Positions 1 through 4,557 of a stretch of 4,557 bases of DNA are shown piece by piece. The stretch lies in the IMG/VR virus record IMGVR_UViG_2531839232_000006, positions 1 through 4,557 of that record. One strand, written 5' to 3'. Within the stretch, counting starts at the first letter, position 1. Each line of letters starts with the position of its first letter. Both the position numbers and the translations under genes were made by a program. This DNA is from a virus. Its lineage: Duplodnaviria; Heunggongvirae; Uroviricota; Caudoviricetes. The notes under the pieces were generated by a model. The model did no database searches, was not told the DNA's origin, and saw only the letters and a program-made list of their open reading frames with translations.

Positions 1-60
1 ACCCAACCGACGGTTTACCTGTTGGATGTAAGGTTAACACATCAAATGCGCCGGAGTTGA
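1..60 (+). CDS. 3' end of an upstream gene (partial, runs off the left edge); possibly the Cro/YdaS-like partner of the following ydaT-like gene
   Basis: Frame 1 is open from the window edge to TGA at 58-60, 3 nt before the ydaT-like ATG at 64. Only 19 codons are visible (…TQPTVYLLDVRLTHQMRRS*), so no identification is possible. Frame 3 is also open here, so even the frame is uncertain. Confidence 0.25.
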   Translation, partial: TQPTVYLLDVRLTHQMRRS

Positions 61-74
61 TTCATGAAAATCAA
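57..74. promoter_or_regulatory. Perfect inverted repeat TTGATT-catgaa-AATCAA (6+6 bp arms, 6-bp spacer) spanning the ydaT-like start codon; candidate operator for the YdaT/CII-like regulator
   Basis: Read directly: TTGATT at 57-62, spacer 63-68, AATCAA at 69-74; the ATG at 64-66 lies in the spacer. As I recall, the published recognition site of CP-933P YdaT is TTGATT-N6-AATCAA; I cannot verify that here. This is the only perfect copy in the window. Confidence 0.5.
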
Positions 75-489
75 GCATGAACACATCCGCATGGCGATGA
101 ATGCCTGGGCGCATCCGGACGGCGAAAAAGTACCGGCTGCGAAAATTACCAAAGCGTATTTCGAGCTGGGAATGACGTTCCCGGAACTGTATGACGACAG
201 CCATCCGGAAGCCATGGCTCGCAATACTCAGAAAATTTTCCGCTGGGTGGAGAAAGACACTCCTGATGCGGTTAAAAAAATTCAGGCGTTGTTACCAGCG
301 ATCGAAAAAGCGATGCCGCCTCCGCTGGTGGCCCGAATGCGCAGCCACAGTTCCGCTTATTTTCGGGAGTTGGTAGAGACGAAGGAACGGCTGGTGAAAG
401 ATATTGATGATTTCGTTGCATCAGCGATCGTTCTGTTCGATCAGATGAATCGTGGTGGCCCGGCAGGAAACACTCTGGCTGTGCATTAA
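64..489 (+). CDS. ydaT: YdaT-like prophage regulator (functional analogue of lambda CII), 141 aa
   Basis: ATG at 64 with GGAG at 53-56 (7-nt spacing); stop TAA at 487-489. The N-terminus MKIKHEHI… and the size match my recollection of the Rac/CP-933P YdaT family. Position immediately upstream of a replication module fits the cII slot of lambdoid phages. Confidence 0.75.
   Translation: MKIKHEHIRMAMNAWAHPDGEKVPAAKITKAYFELGMTFPELYDDSHPEAMARNTQKIFRWVEKDTPDAVKKIQALLPAIEKAMPPPLVARMRSHSSAYFRELVETKERLVKDIDDFVASAIVLFDQMNRGGPAGNTLAVH
324..331 (+). other. Chi octamer 5'-GCTGGTGG-3' (RecBCD hotspot motif) inside the ydaT-like gene
   Basis: Exact octamer read at 324-331 on the + strand; I found no reverse-complement copy (CCACCAGC) in the window. 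Activity depends on the host being E. coli-like. Confidence 0.5.
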
Positions 490-502
490 TTGGGTAATAA
501 AT

Positions 503-1012
503 ATGAGTAATGACAAAAAATTGACACTGAGCGTTTACGAAAACAGTCCGCACATCTGGCGTGGCGGTTTATCTGATGTGGAGCTGGCAGAGTGGTTGAT
601 ACATAAAGCTAATGCGCTGCTCTGGCGTTTGTCAGCCAGAGAACAGCGCAAGGAAACCAGAATAAAGCTGGCTGATGCAGAAGCGTGTGCCGGGCTTATT
701 GAGGATTATACAAATCTTGGTATTTCTTCAGCAGAGAGTGATCCCATTCAGCCTCTGAGCAGGGAGTCAATCCAGCACGCTGGTTGTATGGCACATCTTG
801 TAACTGCTCGTCAACATGAGGTGGGTATTGGATCACTTCCGGCGGGATATTCGCTGATTCCAGAGCTGGTTGAAGCAAGAAAATCAGTTCAGAAAAAGAG
901 AGATGACGCACTTCAATTATTGAGAGAGCACTATGGCGCGATACCAGAATGCGAACAGCGTCGATACCCTGAAGGTTATGAATGGATGCAGTCTCTTTTT
1001 GAAGTTCGCTAA
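503..1012 (+). CDS. Hypothetical protein, 169 aa, function unknown; extra gene between the cII-like gene and the replication initiator
   Basis: ATG at 503, 13 nt after the ydaT stop, with only a weak GGGT upstream; stop TAA at 1010-1012. Co-directional with the operon and E. coli-like codon choice, but several rare AGA/ATA/AGG codons. No motif I recognise. The six-frame ORF begins at GTG 452, which would overlap ydaT by 38 nt and is less likely. Confidence 0.55.
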   Translation: MSNDKKLTLSVYENSPHIWRGGLSDVELAEWLIHKANALLWRLSAREQRKETRIKLADAEACAGLIEDYTNLGISSAESDPIQPLSRESIQHAGCMAHLVTARQHEVGIGSLPAGYSLIPELVEARKSVQKKRDDALQLLREHYGAIPECEQRRYPEGYEWMQSLFEVR

Positions 1013-1016
1013 TCAA
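999..1016. promoter_or_regulatory. Degenerate second copy of the operator-like inverted repeat (TTGAAG-ttcgct-AATCAA, 10 of 12 arm positions, same 6-bp spacer)
   Basis: Read directly at 999-1016, overlapping the stop codon of the 169-aa gene at the start of the 217-bp gap before rep. Only a partial match, so it could be chance. Confidence 0.2.
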
Positions 1017-1229
1017 TATGTCGAGACGAAGGTATGTTTCGGCGCGCAGCCAGGCTCTGTAATCCGGGAGCATTTCGGGGCTGTTACACCAGCGGTTTGT
1101 TGCTGCAACATTTAATACATGAGCCTGATAAAGGCTTTTCAAAAAATACATGTCGAACCTCCTCTGGTTCTGTCGATTGGGAACCACAGATTATATCCGG
1201 AGGAAGGTTCGGCACCAGATGAGGTAGCC

Positions 1230-2321
1230 ATGCGTGATTACGCAAAAGTTTCTCCGCGATTCTGGCTGGGAGAAACGGGGAGAGAACTTAGAAAGGCGGG
1301 TGCAGAAGCGCAAGTTGTTGCTTTTTACCTGATGACATCCCCTCACGCAAATATGCTGGGTTTGTATTACCTGCCAGTTTTATACCTTGCTCATGAAACC
1401 GGGCTTGGTCTGGAAGGGGCTTCAAAGGGGCTTAAAAGGGCTGTTGAAGCTGGTTTTTGTAGCTATGACCATGATGCAGAGATGGTCTGGGTCCATGAAA
1501 TGGCAGCCTGGCAGGTTGGGGAAACGTTGAAGCCTGGCGATAACCGTTGTGCAGGTGTCAGGAATGAGTATGCATCATTACCTGAAAACGCTTTTCTGTC
1601 AGTGTTTTACGACAGATATAAAACGGATTTCCATCTGGATGTGAGGCGGAATAATAGCCGAAATTCGGTAAGGGGCTTCGAAGGGGCTTTTAAGGGGCTT
1701 CGAAGCCAAGAACAGGAACAGGAGCAGGAGAAAGAACAGGAACAGGACAAAAACACTATGGTTCATGGCAAAAAAAACACCACGAACCAGGCAGGGGATG
1801 TTCAGACCGTCAATCCTGGTCAGCCAGCAGGCACGACACCGGAAGCCGATTCGGGCGCTGTGCAGCAGGTGATGACCGCAGGGTCGGAGCAATCACACCA
1901 ACTGCAGCAGCCTGAAGCCGATTCCGCCATTCAGCGGGAAGCCGATCGGGTAGTCCCGGAAAGCACCGGGCAGTCTGTGGGACGAGTGGATTATCCGGAT
2001 GTGTTCGAACAGGTCTGGCGGGAATACCCGTTGCGTGCTGGGGCAAACCCGAAGAAATCCGCTTTCAGTGCCTGGAAGGCCAGATTGCGCGAGGGGGTGC
2101 CACCAGAGACCATGCTGGATGGTGTGAGGCGTTACGCGAGATACCTGGCGGCGACCGGGAAAGCGGGAACGGAATTTGTTCAGCGAGCGACGACGTTTTT
2201 TGGGCCGGACCGGAATTTTGAAAACCCCTGGTTGCTCCCGGTAAGCGGCACGAACAACCAGCGTTGTGTGAATCATATTTCTGAACCGGATACCGAAATT
2301 CCGCCGGGATTCAGGGGGTGA
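1230..2321 (+). CDS. Phage replication initiation protein: N-terminal DNA-binding domain, acidic QE-rich linker, and DnaT-like (primosomal protein I-like) C-terminal domain; 363 aa
   Basis: ATG at 1230 preceded by GAGG at 1221-1224 (5-nt spacing); stop TGA at 2319-2321. The C-terminal tail …ISEPDTEIPPGFRG closely matches the C-terminus of E. coli DnaT as I remember it (…SEPDSQIPPGFRG). It is followed 6 nt later by a DnaC homologue, mirroring the host dnaT-dnaC operon. The alternative start at ATG 1119 has no SD and adds 37 rare-codon-rich residues. Confidence 0.85.
   Translation: MRDYAKVSPRFWLGETGRELRKAGAEAQVVAFYLMTSPHANMLGLYYLPVLYLAHETGLGLEGASKGLKRAVEAGFCSYDHDAEMVWVHEMAAWQVGETLKPGDNRCAGVRNEYASLPENAFLSVFYDRYKTDFHLDVRRNNSRNSVRGFEGAFKGLRSQEQEQEQEKEQEQDKNTMVHGKKNTTNQAGDVQTVNPGQPAGTTPEADSGAVQQVMTAGSEQSHQLQQPEADSAIQREADRVVPESTGQSVGRVDYPDVFEQVWREYPLRAGANPKKSAFSAWKARLREGVPPETMLDGVRRYARYLAATGKAGTEFVQRATTFFGPDRNFENPWLLPVSGTNNQRCVNHISEPDTEIPPGFRG
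1414..1443. repeat. Iteron-like direct repeat cluster A: AAGGGGCTT at 1414-1422 and 1425-1433, plus imperfect AAGGGCTG at 1436-1443, 11-bp period
   Basis: Read directly. The 11-bp period makes the copies fall in all three codon phases of rep (encoding EGA, KGL, KRA), which argues the repeat is selected at the DNA level. Confidence 0.55.
1670..1707. repeat. Iteron-like direct repeat cluster B: three perfect AAGGGGCTT copies at 1670, 1681 and 1692 (exact 11-bp period), ending in the 12-bp palindrome GGCTTCGAAGCC (1696-1707)
   Basis: Read directly. The copies again occupy three different codon phases (encoding RGF, EGA, KGL). Five perfect copies of a 9-mer in 4.5 kb is far beyond chance. Confidence 0.6.
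1708..1786. other. Purine/A-rich tract next to iteron cluster B: (GAACAG)-type hexamer repeats and an A8 run (1770-1777); candidate DNA-unwinding element of an origin embedded in rep
   Basis: The 14-mer GAACAGGAACAGGA occurs at 1710-1723 and 1734-1747, and the top strand is almost all purine, encoding the QEQEQEQEKEQEQDKN linker. The iterons-then-A-rich layout inside the initiator gene parallels lambda ori inside gene O. Confidence 0.35.
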
Positions 2322-2327
2322 TGTGGC

Positions 2328-3074
2328 ATGAAAAACATTGCGGCAGCCGGGGTTCTTGAACGTATTCGCAGACTTGCACCACAGGCGTCGGTTCCACCGT
2401 ACCGGACGGTGGAGGAGTGGCGGGAATGGCAACTTGCTGAAGGACGAAAACGCAGCGAGGAGATTAACCGCCAGAATCACCAGTTGCGGGTGGAAAAAAT
2501 CCTGAATCGTTCGGGCATCCAGCCTCTGCACAGCAAATGCTCGTTTGCGAATTATCAGGTGCAGAACGACGGGCAAAAATACGCGCTGAGCCAGGCCAAA
2601 TCCATAGCTGACGAACTGATGACCGGGTGCACGAATTTTGTGTTCAGCGGTAAAACCGGCACCGGGAAAAATCACCTTGCAGCGGCGATGGGTAACCGGC
2701 TGATGGCGAAGGGGCGCAGCGTGATTATCGTCACCGTGTCTGATGTCATGAGCGTGTTGCATGACAGCTACGACAACGGCAAATCCGGGGAAAAATTTTT
2801 ACAGGAGCTTTGCAGTGTTGATTTGCTGGTCCTGGATGAAATAGGCGTTCAGCGGGAGACGAAAAACGAGCAGGTGGTATTACACCAGATAATTGATCGC
2901 CGGACAGCATCACTGTGCAGTGTCGGGATGTTAACAAACCTGAATCATGCCGCAATGAGTACACTTCTTGGTGAGAGGATTATGGACCGCATGACCATGA
3001 ACGGTGGTCGATGGGTGACGTTTAACTGGGATAGCTGGCGTCCAAATGTCAGCAATATGAGGGTTGTGAAGTAA
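2328..3074 (+). CDS. dnaC: DnaC-like replicative helicase loader (AAA+ ATPase), 248 aa; prophage paralogue of host DnaC
   Basis: ATG at 2328 with a G-rich SD at 2314-2320; stop TAA at 3072-3074. Walker A GKTGTGKN is encoded at 2649-2672 and Walker B LLVLDEIG is present (about 2822-2845). Sequence is near-colinear with E. coli DnaC across the NRSGI…CSF…NY and FNWDSWR regions. Confidence 0.95.
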   Translation: MKNIAAAGVLERIRRLAPQASVPPYRTVEEWREWQLAEGRKRSEEINRQNHQLRVEKILNRSGIQPLHSKCSFANYQVQNDGQKYALSQAKSIADELMTGCTNFVFSGKTGTGKNHLAAAMGNRLMAKGRSVIIVTVSDVMSVLHDSYDNGKSGEKFLQELCSVDLLVLDEIGVQRETKNEQVVLHQIIDRRTASLCSVGMLTNLNHAAMSTLLGERIMDRMTMNGGRWVTFNWDSWRPNVSNMRVVK

Positions 3075-3095
3075 TTTTGTCCGGAGGAAATTTTA

Positions 3096-3812
3096 ATGGA
3101 AACCGTATCTGACGCACTGAAAGCACTGAAAAAAGCCTCTTCACATGTGGTGGCAGCTCGCCTTGGAATTAGTCGTGAAGAGGCTGTCAACGAACTGTGG
3201 AAACTGAAACGCCGTGGAGAAGCGGATAACAAGGGGGCGATATGGTGGCTGACTCAGGCTGGTGAAAGTGAACCGGTGTCACCGGTACCGAAAGTGACGG
3301 CGCAAATGCTGACAGAGGCGATTGAACAACATGGCCCACAAACGGCGGATGAACTGGCATTGATGTTCGGAATTACCTCCCGCCGGGCGAATTCATCGCT
3401 GGCAATGGCAATCAGCAAAGGGTGTCTGATTCGCGTGAATCAGGATGGTAAATTTCGTTACTGCATACCGGGCGTTGATTTACCGGCAGAGCCGAAAGCA
3501 GCATCCGTAGCTGAAACGGAGGGTAAAGCCCTTCCTCAGCCAGCTGGTGTTGCGTTACCAGTCCAGGAAACGGCTGCACAGGAAGAAATTAAAACAGAAG
3601 CGGTGGAGGACATTGTGAAGTTGCAGCAATCGTTCACTGAAGCGAAAGCAGATGACCTGATTCTACCATCGCTGCATGTGGCTAACCGCGAGCTGCGCCG
3701 GGCGAAAAGTAATGTTCAGAAGTGGGAGCGAGTCTGTGCTGCGCTACGGGAACTGAACAAACACAGGGATATTCTCCGGGATATTACCGCCACCAGAGAG
3801 CAGCAGCGGTGA
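3096..3812 (+). CDS. Hypothetical protein, 238 aa: two tandem winged-helix-like repeats followed by a Pro/Ala-rich linker and a C-terminal coiled-coil-like region; possibly a DUF1627-type prophage protein
   Basis: ATG at 3096 with GGAGG at 3083-3087 (8-nt spacing); stop TGA at 3810-3812. Internal repeat by eye: residues about 3-56 and 68-126 share the pattern L..A…(A/E)L(A)..(G)I(S/T)..A…L…G. The family name is from memory and unverified. Confidence 0.75.
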
Positions 3813-4126
3813 GTGGCTGGAAGAAGTGGCGCTGGGCTGAAATCCTGATACTCCGGCAGTGTGCGGGAACGATGAGAGTCGAAAGCATCGGTTATCTGAT
3901 TGGCCGTAGTGAGTCAGCCGTCAGGACGAAAGCGCGGGAACTGGGTATCAGCATGATGTTACGGGGTGATTATCACCAGTCAGCCAAATGTTCACAGCGT
4001 GATATTGAGCTGGCGTGGCAACTGCATCAGCGTGGTGTACCCCGACGGGAAATTGCCGAAAAGTTTGGGATGAAGTTGGGCGCAGTGAATAACTACGTTT
4101 ATTTCGACAGGAGGGTTCAGGAGTGA
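3809..4126 (+). CDS. Small putative DNA-binding protein, about 105 aa, with two HTH-like repeats (the first resembles the GcrA N-terminal / sigma-70 region-4 type of HTH)
   Basis: GTG at 3809-3811 overlaps the upstream stop TGA at 3810-3812 (GTGA junction); stop TGA at 4124-4126. Repeat 1 is [41 protein letters not shown] and repeat 2 is [32 protein letters not shown]. The alternative ATG at 3872 would cut off the first helix, and the six-frame start at 3722 lies inside the upstream gene. Confidence 0.6.
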
Positions 4127-4425
4127 GGGTGAGGGTTTATATCGCCGGTCCGATGACGGGATATGAAAATTTTAACCGCGAGGCATTTCACAAAACGGAA
4201 GAGGTGCTGAAACGGGAAGGGCATACCGTTTTAAACCCGGCAGTACTTCCGGACGGGCTGACTCAGCCACACTACATGGATATTTGCATGGCAATGCTCC
4301 GTTGCGTGGATGCGGTTTACATGCTGAAAGGCTGGCAGCAGTCGGCAGGTGCAGGGGCTGAGCTGGCACTGGAGGAGAAACCGGGCCATGCGGTGATTTT
4401 TCAGGAGGTGGGCAGTGAATATTGA
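4123..4425 (+). CDS. DUF4406-like small protein (nucleoside 2-deoxyribosyltransferase-like fold), 100 aa
   Basis: GTG at 4123-4125 overlaps the upstream stop TGA at 4124-4126 (second GTGA junction), with AGGAGG at 4109-4114 (8-nt spacing); stop TGA at 4423-4425. The N-terminal VYIAGPMTG motif and the later GW..S.GA..E block are what I recognise as characteristic of the DUF4406 / NDT-like superfamily. An alternative GTG start lies at 4129. Confidence 0.8.
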   Translation: MRVRVYIAGPMTGYENFNREAFHKTEEVLKREGHTVLNPAVLPDGLTQPHYMDICMAMLRCVDAVYMLKGWQQSAGAGAELALEEKPGHAVIFQEVGSEY

Positions 4426-4557
4426 CCCGGCGATAACGATTGATATGGCCCTGAACGCCGGCCTGGCACTTCTTGGTTATTTCTACATTATGTTCTGCAG
4501 CGGACGATGGCTGTCACTGTTGTTCATGAAAAAATGGAATAAACGCCGTAAGCAGGA
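4415..4557 (+). CDS. 5' part of a small putative membrane protein (runs off the right edge)
   Basis: GTG at 4415 with AGGAGG at 4403-4408 (6-nt spacing), overlapping the DUF4406 stop by 11 nt; an alternative ATG lies at 4445. The frame is open to the window end and encodes VNIDPAITIDMALNAGLALLGYFYIMFCSGRWLSLLFMKKWNKRRKQ, with a roughly 25-residue hydrophobic stretch followed by a basic patch. It is absent from the supplied ORF track, presumably because it is truncated. Confidence 0.4.
   Translation, partial: MNIDPAITIDMALNAGLALLGYFYIMFCSGRWLSLLFMKKWNKRRKQ

Follow-up and report, generated by a model that had tools for sequence, protein, structure and literature searches.

Organization of the locus

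The window, i.e. the whole analysed stretch of 4557 nt, ends with four densely packed genes, here called g1 to g4, which lie downstream of a replication module (Table 1). As read directly from the sequence, the stop codon of the upstream dnaC-like reading frame is located at 3072–3074, and the GGAGG in the following spacer is separated by 8 nt from the ATG start codon of g1 (3096). The start codon of g2 and the stop codon of g1 share a GTGA at 3809–3812, and those of g3 and g2 share a second GTGA at 4123–4126. The GTG start codon of g4 (4415) lies inside g3, giving an overlap of 11 nt (4415–4425). A preliminary description of this DNA had listed the 21-bp gap with its good Shine-Dalgarno (SD) sequence, both GTGA overlaps, and the 11-nt overlap, and it was exact in all of them. 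The last gene, g4, exceeds the window end; its complete version in prophage Sp6 of Escherichia coli O157:H7 Sakai encodes 105 aa.

Table 1 Features in and directly upstream of positions 3096–4557 of the window
Feature	Position	Strand	Evidence
DnaC/IstB-like helicase loader, last gene of the replication module	2328–3074	+	Pfam IstB_IS21 3.9e-19; phrog_50 2.9e-83
21-nt spacer with SD sequence of g1, GGAGG (3083–3087)	3075–3095	+	read from sequence
Segment common to two O157 prophage types	3096–3209	.	parent switch point
g1, DUF1627/YdaW family, 238 aa	3096–3812	+	Pfam PF07789 1.6e-81
g2, 105 aa, two helix-turn-helix units	3809–4126	+	phrog_323 1.8e-24
g3, DUF4406, 100 aa, minimal NDT/DNPH1-type fold	4123–4425	+	Pfam PF14359 2e-33
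g4, 5′ part, DUF4752	4415–4557	+	Pfam PF15944 1e-16 (partial protein), 7.5e-39 (full)

Strong SD sequences of their own were found for g1, g3 (GGAGGG at 4110–4115), and g4 (AGGAGG at 4403–4408). Since the SD sequence of g2 is weak and its GTG start codon overlaps the stop codon of g1, translation of g2 probably depends on that of g1 (termination-reinitiation). The start of g2 at 3809 is supported because the N-termini of its homologues align with it; those of Salmonella, Pantoea, and Enterobacter begin with M-(S/N)-K-W. A longer version starting from GTG 3722, where the reading frame is open, was rejected: the homologue N-termini fit 3809, and the upstream frame is open also in loci devoid of g2 (e.g. 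L118). For g3, GTG 4129 is an alternative start codon, with SD spacing favouring 4123. RefSeq annotators picked the identical four starts for the Sp6 genes ECs_1511–ECs_1514. In all four frames, codon position 3 carries 56–65% of the differences between homologues, i.e. the frames behave as real coding sequence. Promoter and terminator scans of the stretch gave no site above shuffle expectation, Rfam and repeat searches detected nothing in or near g1–g4, and none of the four had a match in NCBIfam.

Positions 3096–4557 are 99.9% identical to ECs_1511–ECs_1514 of Sp6 (NC_002695.2, 1547732–1549368), where the calls for all four genes and their overlaps are the same. The replication genes upstream differ: Sp6 carries a DnaT-domain initiator and a lambda-P-like loader, whereas another initiator and a DnaC-like loader precede g1 in the window. 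Positions 1–3209 match one parent and positions 3096–4557 are Sp6-like; the switch, which may be a true recombination or an assembly join, lies at the beginning of g1 (within 114 nt). Past g4, the Sp6 genes keep overlapping through ECs_1515–ECs_1518 towards Q, and hok/mok, DUF968, an endonuclease gene, and Q come next. The stretch is an already annotated piece of a well-studied O157:H7 prophage.

Predicted gene products

Three of the four proteins (g1, g3, and g4) passed Pfam thresholds. For g1, the PF07789 score was 272.1 bits (cut-off 28.1). Its two winged helices (residues 1–53 and 66–124) are followed by a disordered acidic and proline-rich linker (approximately residues 130–190) and a long C-terminal helix (residues 193–237). 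The AF2 model of g1 had a pLDDT of 81.8, and its best Foldseek matches were tandem winged-helix proteins (ScpB, ESCRT-II, and SelB). Together with the Pfam match, these results confirmed the earlier designation of g1 as a tandem winged-helix/coiled-coil protein. Such a protein would bind DNA or another protein, and its C-terminal helix may serve oligomerization or partner binding. In the Rac prophage of E. coli K-12 (ydaU-ydaV-ydaW), the family member YdaW likewise comes after the loader. Over residues 1–139, its identity to g1 is 58%, but the protein is truncated (186 aa) and lacks the C-terminal helix. The homologue search with g1 returned only relatives of at least 79% identity, and the family diversity was taken from a search of representatives, in which DUF1627/YdaW proved very small (145 cluster representatives among 1.84 billion).

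The slot occupied by g1 is that of lambda ren. The N-terminal winged helix of g1 may be related to that of Ren-like proteins, but g1 as a Ren homologue was dropped, since the weak similarity is confined to this generic fold. The alignment of the g1 family (A1) reached a probability of 37% (E = 3.5e-4) against the Ren-like alignment (A6) in hhalign, and the match of g1 to phrog_142 was weak (E = 2.7e-4, no qualifying stretch). The motif N-x-x-x-x-E-C-R-x-S-x-x-M-x-R-V-x-A-x-Y is invariant in A6; the C-terminal motif of Ren (ECRxSxxMxRVLAxY) is absent from g1, and BLASTP of Ren against g1 found nothing there.

For g2, sub-threshold Pfam helix-turn-helix matches (Sigma70_r4_2, HTH_23, and HTH_7) covered residues 61–98 only, and the first unit was deduced from the repeat pattern in the alignment of its homologues (A5). 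With the phrog_323 match, this agrees with the description of g2 as a double helix-turn-helix protein, and the predicted role is that of a small DNA-binding protein.

The DUF4406 assignment of g3 scored 115.1 bits (cut-off 22). Its AF2 model (pLDDT 85.2, pTM 0.80) has the three-layer alpha/beta fold of nucleoside 2′-deoxyribosyltransferase (NDT) and DNPH1, and the top 46 Foldseek matches in the PDB all belonged to the NDT superfamily (TMq 0.65–0.76), comprising NDT, DNPH1/Rcl, and two uncharacterized structural-genomics proteins. A single-sequence search of the PDB with g3 gave a chance match only. A profile of four g3 sequences reached NDT with marginal similarity (2a0k, E = 0.01) and aligned motifs: YxAGP, DA, and SxGxxxE align with the Trypanosoma brucei enzyme, where Tyr6 and Glu80 of g3 fall on KIYIAGP and GTAFE. 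An NDT-like protein, as initially proposed, is borne out by these data. Both the predicted catalytic Glu nucleophile and the positioning Tyr of NDT/DNPH1 are present; Tyr6 and Glu80 are invariant in all 36 sequences. Asp63, the putative counterpart of the catalytic Asp at the end of strand 3, is found in the window protein and is shared by 29 of 36 relatives; Q, E, or T replaces it in the other seven. The mutant entries Y7F, D62N, and E88Q/A of Chroococcidiopsis NDT correspond to Tyr6, Asp63, and Glu80 by order and spacing only, and the same holds for the g3 counterpart of D80A, the DNPH1 mutant named in PDB titles. In contrast to NDT and the 2′-deoxynucleoside-5′-phosphate N-hydrolases DNPH1/Rcl (125–158 aa), g3 has 100 aa and lacks the C-terminal part. 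By its modelled fold, g3 may be an NDT/DNPH1-type N-glycosidase or transferase with deoxynucleosides or deoxynucleotides as substrates. With some confidence, DUF4406 can be called a minimal catalytic domain of the NDT/DNPH1 type, found widely among phages.

The 47 aa of g4 inside the window scored 61.2 bits against PF15944, and the full Sp6 protein scored 132.1 bits (cut-off 27). A hydrophobic N-terminal segment precedes a Lys/Arg-rich stretch; the hydropathy maximum was 1.54 (residues 11–29), compared with 2.06 for the homologue in phage BTP1. DUF4752 membership and hydropathy fit the proposed small membrane protein, as g4 is a small hydrophobic protein and probably membrane-associated. Literature searches on DUF1627, DUF4406, DUF4752, DUF977, and lygF found no functional study.

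Distribution and linkage of the four genes

The co-occurrence of the genes was analyzed in locus sets from IMG/VR. As each set consisted of the 80 closest relatives per query, many of them from clonal O157 isolates, the following proportions are rough: (i) among 58 g3-anchored loci, 23 contained all four genes, 13 had g3 without g1 and g2, and seven had g1 and g3 without g2; (ii) among 61 g1-anchored loci, 21 contained all four, 16 only g1 and g2, and five only g1; and (iii) g1–g3 were found upstream of g4 in 16 of 76 g4-anchored loci and were missing in 60. Complete E. coli genomes carried g1 in 1516 cases, g2 in 768, g3 in 1110, and g4 in 570, and at most 457 contained at least 80% of the whole stretch. 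Homologues occurring singly and in varying contexts, named in the preliminary description as what would speak against a module, are largely what was seen. The four-gene boundary drawn in the preliminary description also proved arbitrary. The Sp6 chain continues beyond it, and g4 is linked to ECs_1515 in 54 of the 76 loci vs. 16 for g3.

Because the trio g1-g2-g3 was present in 72 of 73 loci of close g2 relatives (at least 79% identity), it can be regarded as one linked unit in the prophages of E. coli and Shigella. The gene order is kept behind DnaC-like and lambda-P-like helicase loaders, which are unrelated to each other; on this point the preliminary description is supported. Within the four genes, linkage is limited to this trio and to close E. 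coli relatives. Farther away, relatives of g2 at 64–68% identity lie in the early-left operons of Salmonella and Pantoea by xis/int, with no DUF1627, DUF4406, or DUF4752 gene near them. A 271-aa protein upstream of the Salmonella homologue was considered as a diverged DUF1627 and rejected (hhalign probability 0.2%). Similarly, g4 homologues are found near int/xis in Stx2 phages (91% identity) and, in the P22-like phage BTP1, within the nin region (44% identity). Relatives of g3 were detected in 521 phage records, led by phages of Arthrobacter, Vibrio, Gordonia, Mycobacterium, and Pseudomonas; most of these genomes belong to hosts without the other three families. The g3 family counts more than 7,251 proteins vs. 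the 145 DUF1627 cluster representatives.

The steady neighbour of g1 across divergence is the replication module, the only stable partner of DUF1627/YdaW. All 61 close loci have g1 immediately behind the loader, whichever type is present. Among distant DUF1627 members, those of L158 and L300 follow a P-like loader and that of L301 a Phg_2220_C replication protein, and one lies upstream of a DnaT-like initiator (L160). In L159, another distant member (28% identity) is followed at 470 nt by a DUF4406 gene, and in L150 a g2 homologue (62% identity) lies two genes further on.

Exchange at gene boundaries was seen among related phages (e.g. L044, L038, L095, and L119). A Ren-like DUF977 gene swaps with g1 and g2 together or with g2 alone. 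In L044, the g3 start overlaps the stop codon of this different gene by 4 nt; in L095, the g2 stop overlaps the start of an unrelated 75-aa gene. The DUF4406 genes of Vibrio phage H188 and Pseudomonas phage phi297 likewise have 4-nt overlaps with unrelated neighbours. In the Rac-SA53 prophage (ydaW-lygF-rac19-ead), rac19 corresponds to g3 at 87% identity, whereas the Ren-like LygF (DUF977) takes the place of g2, and g4 is absent.

Comparison with the ren-nin region of lambda

According to the Sp6 map and the junction table, the four genes are short overlapping reading frames that share the strand of the replication genes and Q and lie in the interval separating them, like genes of the ren/nin type. 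In lambda (P, ren, ninB–ninI, Q), this region likewise occupies the part of the early-right transcript that separates the helicase loader from Q, and its packing is the same: among 11 junctions of O/P/ren/nin there are seven 4-nt overlaps (O/P, P/ren, ninB/C, ninC/D, ninE/F, ninG/H, and ninI/Q) and one 11-nt overlap (ninF/G). Both regions have a mosaic, dispensable character; deletions have shown the nin region of lambda to be dispensable. The earlier argument that coupling implies a co-expressed system fails on this comparison, as the unrelated ren and nin genes overlap alike and the overlaps of g2 and g3 survive neighbour swaps. GTGA/ATGA overlaps alone give no basis for scoring a system in phage early operons. 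The genes had also been said to match no canonical ren or nin function. This stands insofar as Pfam and PHROG scans gave no match of g1–g4 to any NinB–NinI family, unlike the lambda genes, but not for ren, since the Ren-like DUF977 gene alternates with g2 or with g1 and g2, and g1 occupies the ren slot.

Interpretation of the locus

We consider it likely that positions 3096–4557 are the start of the accessory stretch between replication genes and Q, the late-gene antiterminator, in a Rac/Sp6-type lambdoid prophage, with four real genes that assort independently. The stretch would be the counterpart of the lambda ren-nin region in the early-right operon of an E. coli O157:H7 prophage, and g1–g4 would be transcribed by read-through from an upstream early promoter. 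The 4-nt and 11-nt overlaps would then reflect normal operon packing and sites of mosaic exchange, not the mark of a multi-protein machine. The preliminary description was right to view g1–g4 as non-core accessory genes of an early operon with no known function; its proposal of an undescribed early-expressed system is largely refuted by the distribution data, each gene occurring without the others. The idea that the four genes form one dedicated accessory system, co-expressed in stoichiometric amounts and serving counter-defence, superinfection exclusion, or manipulation of the nucleotide pool, had in its favour that the overlaps are real, that all four stand behind two unrelated loader types in 21–23 loci per g1- or g3-anchored set and recur with the whole stretch in up to 457 complete genomes, and that one 169-aa gene call (P0392) fuses DUF4406 and DUF4752. 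However, this fusion comprises three member sequences and would be explained by a one-base indel in the 11-nt overlap, g4 mostly occurs without g1–g3 and is paired with ECs_1515 instead, and its frameshift in L017-type loci leaves g1–g3 in place. Moreover, g3 is widespread in phages of hosts with none of the other families, other phages carry g2 and g4 in their opposite early operon, lambda has equal overlaps between unrelated genes, and the overlapping chain continues beyond g4. PADLOC defence models were not matched by g1–g4 or DUF977 proteins at E ≤ 0.1. We regard such a system as extremely unlikely.

A functional cassette restricted to g1-g2-g3, in which the two DNA-binding proteins control or neutralize the NDT-type enzyme or all three act jointly against host defence, is somewhat less remote, yet improbable. 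The trio's linkage behind both loader types and the DUF4406 gene or g2 homologue near distant DUF1627 members are consistent with it. The sole find in literature searches on ydaW was a screen by overexpression in which K-12 YdaW scored as a blocker of RcaT, the toxin of retron-Sen2 (bioRxiv 10.1101/2020.06.22.160242), and this hit also speaks for the cassette. Against it stand the loci with g1 and g2 but no g3 (16 of 61) or g1 alone (five of 61), those with g3 but neither g1 nor g2 (13 of 58) or with g1 and g3 but no g2 (seven of 58), the substitution of DUF977 for g2 or for g1 and g2, the Salmonella and Pantoea operons with g2 but no g1 or g3, where the upstream 271-aa protein is not DUF1627-like, and the far broader distribution of the g3 family; linkage among close relatives is also expected from shared ancestry of a mosaic block. 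The more specific proposal that g1 is a counter-defence factor neutralizing RcaT-type retron toxins and functionally tied to g3 (g1 and g2 restraining g3, or g3 acting as a mimic) is very unlikely. RcaT-type effectors are NDT-like; if the proposal were true, g1-g2-g3 would be an undescribed anti-retron or nucleotide-directed cassette of Rac/Sp6-type prophages. A possible, though on balance unlikely, alternative is that g1 belongs to the replication module as its third component or as a regulator, e.g. binding the origin or the helicase/loader, with g2–g4 as unrelated passengers. Its constant place behind either loader, the replication genes adjoining distant members, the one member upstream of an initiator, and the tandem winged-helix fold point in this direction; this architecture is common among replication proteins. 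The fold matches of g1 are generic, however, and one distant member (L150) follows Exonuc_VIII, approximately 2.3 kb upstream of a gpA-type replicase. Because many prophages with the DnaC-like loader have DUF977 in place of g1 (nine dnaC-g3 loci; L044), g1 is dispensable for that module, and the lambda gene at this place, ren, does not belong to the replication genes.

The region is an ordinary, already annotated mosaic of genes with no known function, and the finding matters little as it stands; dense packing of this kind is usual in lambdoid early operons. Given its tiny family, its partnership with the replication module, and the hit of its K-12 member in the retron-toxin-blocker screen, DUF1627/YdaW could reasonably be followed up as a single gene.

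Gene organization and operon position

For the four closely packed genes (g1-g4) downstream of the gene for a DnaC/IstB-like helicase loader, we established position, gene order, overlaps, ribosome-binding sites, protein folds, and mosaic distribution; within a lambdoid early operon they make up a mosaic segment of the ordinary kind, annotated already, whose individual genes are functionally uncharacterised. Direct reading of the sequence bore out the geometry of the preliminary description, i.e. a 21-nt gap, two GTGA overlaps, and one 11-nt overlap.

Features read in the window
Feature	Position	Strand	Remarks
ORF, phrog_8304 match	503-1012	+	overlaps ORF 696-1187
ORF, ECs1072 family	696-1187	-	overlaps ORF 503-1012
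Iteron-like direct repeats	1409-1450 and 1665-1717		within initiator gene
Duplicated AAGAACAGGAACAGGA	1708-1747		adjoins iteron-like repeats
DnaC/IstB-like ORF	end 3074	+	read from sequence
Spacer, 21 nt	ahead of ATG 3096		GGAGG at 3083-3087
g1 (DUF1627/YdaW)	3096-3812	+	start ATG 3096
g2 (two-HTH protein)	3809-4126	+	GTGA 3809-3812 common to g1 and g2
g3 (DUF4406)	4123-4425	+	GTGA 4123-4126 common to g2 and g3; GGAGGG at 4110-4115
g4 (DUF4752)	start GTG 4415	+	11 nt within g3; extends past window end

The stretch 3096-4557 matches prophage Sp6 of E. coli O157:H7 Sakai, as well as hundreds more O157 genomes, at 99.9% identity. Its Sp6 counterparts, ECs_1511-1514, have in RefSeq the same four start sites as read here. 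Codon position 3 accounted for 56-65% of substitutions in ungapped homologues, and all four frames behave like coding DNA. The g2 frame is already open from GTG 3722; this start was ruled out in favor of 3809, because the N-terminus M-(S/N)-K-W of the Salmonella, Pantoea, and Enterobacter homologues aligns with the latter and the upstream frame is open even in loci without g2. For g3, GTG 4129 is a possible alternative, although the spacing from GGAGGG favors 4123.

In Sp6, the genes are preceded by cro/cII-like ydaS and ydaT, a DnaT-domain initiator, and a lambda-P-like loader. Downstream, the dense packing continues through ECs_1515-1518, first with overlaps of 47 and 14 nt and then with gaps of 1 and 2 nt; hok/mok, DUF968, an endonuclease, and Q come next. 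In position, the stretch therefore corresponds to the lambda ren-nin region.

Read-through from the early-right promoter would serve to transcribe the genes; within the stretch, neither promoter-like nor terminator-like sites exceeded chance, and Rfam gave no match. Translation of g1, g3, and g4 would initiate on their own Shine-Dalgarno (SD) sequences, and that of g2, with its weak SD and overlapping start, by reinitiation after g1.

The window joins two O157 prophage types: positions 1-3209 are 99.9% identical to another type (L298), and the switch lies within 114 nt common to both at the 5' end of g1. Of the 5,426 complete E. coli genomes, not one has at least 80% of the window in a single place; three IMG/VR contigs (L002, L004, L006) carry all of it in one place. 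The hybrid could have arisen by true recombination or through misassembly of short reads. In the left-half type (O157:H7 PV15-279; L298 8382-11245), the gene after DUF1627 is a Ren-like DUF977 gene, broken by an ISEc8 (IS66-family) insertion.

Packing and co-occurrence of the four genes

The preliminary description had proposed the tightly coupled genes as a candidate four-gene accessory system. Lambda, used as a control, has 4-nt overlaps at O/P, P/ren, ninB/C, ninC/D, ninE/F, ninG/H, and ninI/Q, and an 11-nt overlap at ninF/G. The functions of the lambda O, P, ren, nin, and Q genes are unrelated to one another, so that overlaps of the same lengths occur there between functionally unrelated genes. 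Moreover, overlaps survive a change of partner gene: a DUF977 gene overlaps g3 by 4 nt (L044), g2 overlaps an unrelated 75-aa gene by 4 nt (L095), and DUF4406 shares 4-nt overlaps with unrelated neighbors in Vibrio phage H188 and Pseudomonas phage phi297. Tight packing thus does not indicate a system.

Neither was such a system supported by the neighborhood check, which revealed partial linkage that falls with divergence. Proportions in the IMG/VR sets are rough (80 closest relatives per query, many from clonal O157 isolates). Among 58 g3-anchored loci, 23 carried all four genes, 15 g1-g2-g3 without g4, 13 g3 without g1 and g2, and seven g1 and g3 without g2. The 61 g1-anchored loci comprised 21 with all four, 18 with g1-g2-g3, 16 with g1-g2 only, five with g1 only, and one with g1 and g3 without g2. 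The linked block was the trio g1-g2-g3, found behind either loader type in 72 of 73 loci of close g2 relatives, whereas g4 had g1-g3 upstream in only 16 of 76 g4-anchored loci (L161-L233 among them). The most constant neighbor of g4 was the next downstream gene, ECs_1515 (phrog_3126; L001 8591-8908), in 54 of these 76 versus 16 with g3 nearby. Elsewhere, DUF977 (PF06163, 1.8e-31) stands in for g1 and g2 or for g2 alone; this replacement gene matches the PHROG "Ren-like exclusion protein" (1.9e-41), has Ren's C-terminal motif, and is named lygF in phage Rac-SA53. Near-identical DNA occurred in 1516 (g1), 768 (g2), 1110 (g3), and 570 (g4) complete E. coli genomes, and at least 80% of the whole four-gene stretch in at most 457. 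The four genes travel together in part, and less so with distance. That g1-g2-g3 form a functional cassette is a weak possibility. None of the four proteins matched a known defence component, and each product would act alone.

Properties of the individual proteins

All four domain guesses of the preliminary description proved correct, as judged by Pfam and PHROG matches, AF2 models of g1 and g3, the g2 alignment, and the hydrophobic N-terminus of g4.

The g1 protein matches DUF1627 (PF07789, 1.6e-81), a very small family (of 1.84 billion representatives, 145 match at E<=0.001), and is 58% identical to K-12 Rac YdaW over residues 1-139. Its AF2 model, built from an alignment of 38 diverse family members (pLDDT 81.8), places winged helices at 1-53 and 66-124, which a disordered linker connects to a long C-terminal helix (193-237). 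The best PDB matches, the tandem winged-helix proteins ScpB, ESCRT-II, and SelB, are generic. Of the distant DUF1627 genes (26-35% identity), those in L158 and L300 come after a P-like loader and that in L301 after a Phg_2220_C replication protein; the one in L160 precedes a DnaT-like initiator, and the one in L150 lies behind Exonuc_VIII. DUF4406 was nearby only in L159 and a g2 homologue only in L150. Thus, g1 is stably partnered with the replication module and not with g2-g4. We propose that g1 would be a winged-helix factor binding DNA or protein, tied to this module, in the slot of ren.

K-12 ydaW (L299 4253-4813) keeps both winged helices and, owing to the deletion of Rac sequence immediately downstream, has no C-terminal helix. 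For a screen with E. coli gene-overexpression libraries, one paper lists it with the prophage genes that blocked the retron-Sen2 toxin RcaT when overexpressed, with no follow-up there (bioRxiv 10.1101/2020.06.22.160242). Presumably, the truncated form was expressed. This listing is the sole experimental hint of counter-defence and touches g1 alone, in truncated form; the interest that is left concerns DUF1627/YdaW as a single gene, along with the weak possibility of a g1-g2-g3 cassette.

For g2, Pfam gave HTH matches on residues 61-98 only, all sub-threshold, and PHROG matched phrog_323; the family alignment contains two similar HTH-like units, consistent with a small DNA-binding protein. Homologues with 64-68% identity lie in early-left operons of Salmonella and Pantoea (L145-L149), a few genes upstream of xis/int; one small, putatively DNA-binding gene therefore serves in either early operon. 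No DUF1627, DUF4406, or DUF4752 was found near these homologues. The large protein upstream of them was considered as DUF1627 and proved unlike it on comparison.

The g3 protein matches DUF4406 (2e-33). Among the top 46 PDB matches of its AF2 model (pLDDT 85.2, pTM 0.80) were solely nucleoside 2-deoxyribosyltransferases (NDT), DNPH1/Rcl, and relatives (TMq 0.65-0.76). The g3-family profile found T. brucei NDT (E=0.01), in an alignment that matches up the YIAGP, DA, and GxxxE motifs. All 36 relatives have Tyr6 and Glu80, and 29 have Asp63. The protein may be an NDT/DNPH1-type N-glycosidase or transferase acting on deoxynucleosides or deoxynucleotides. The profile matches more than 7,251 proteins, and relatives occur in 521 phage records, most commonly of Arthrobacter, Vibrio, Gordonia, Mycobacterium, and Pseudomonas phages. 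Gene neighborhoods hint that DUF4406 tends to sit amid nucleotide-handling genes. An NTP pyrophosphatase directly follows it in H188 (L154 2495-3204); in phi297 (L155 2001-2815), DUF550 precedes it, with a DNA methylase farther upstream. One protein from the profile search (P0392) is a 169-aa gene call with both DUF4406 and DUF4752 (three member sequences, one contig), probably produced by a single-base indel within the 11-nt overlap and not a true fusion.

In g4, a hydrophobic N-terminal segment precedes a Lys/Arg-rich stretch, as might be expected of a small membrane-associated protein. A homologue with 91% identity in Stx2 phages lies near int/xis and adjoins a DksA-like zinc-finger gene; the P22-like phage BTP1 carries another (44%) in its nin region. 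In several loci (L017, L020-L030, and similar; e.g. L017 2943-3223), g4 is frameshifted into 72-aa and 62-aa pieces, with g1-g3 intact.

Other features of the window

The iteron-like repeats (GAAGGGGCTT...) in the initiator gene are probably the replication origin, since the lambda ori is likewise located within O. The adjoining duplication encodes a QEQEQ run. Farther left, two long ORFs overlap on opposite strands; the minus-strand ORF carries the RefSeq name 'ECs1072 family phage-associated protein', and the plus-strand ORF matches phrog_8304 at 4e-120.
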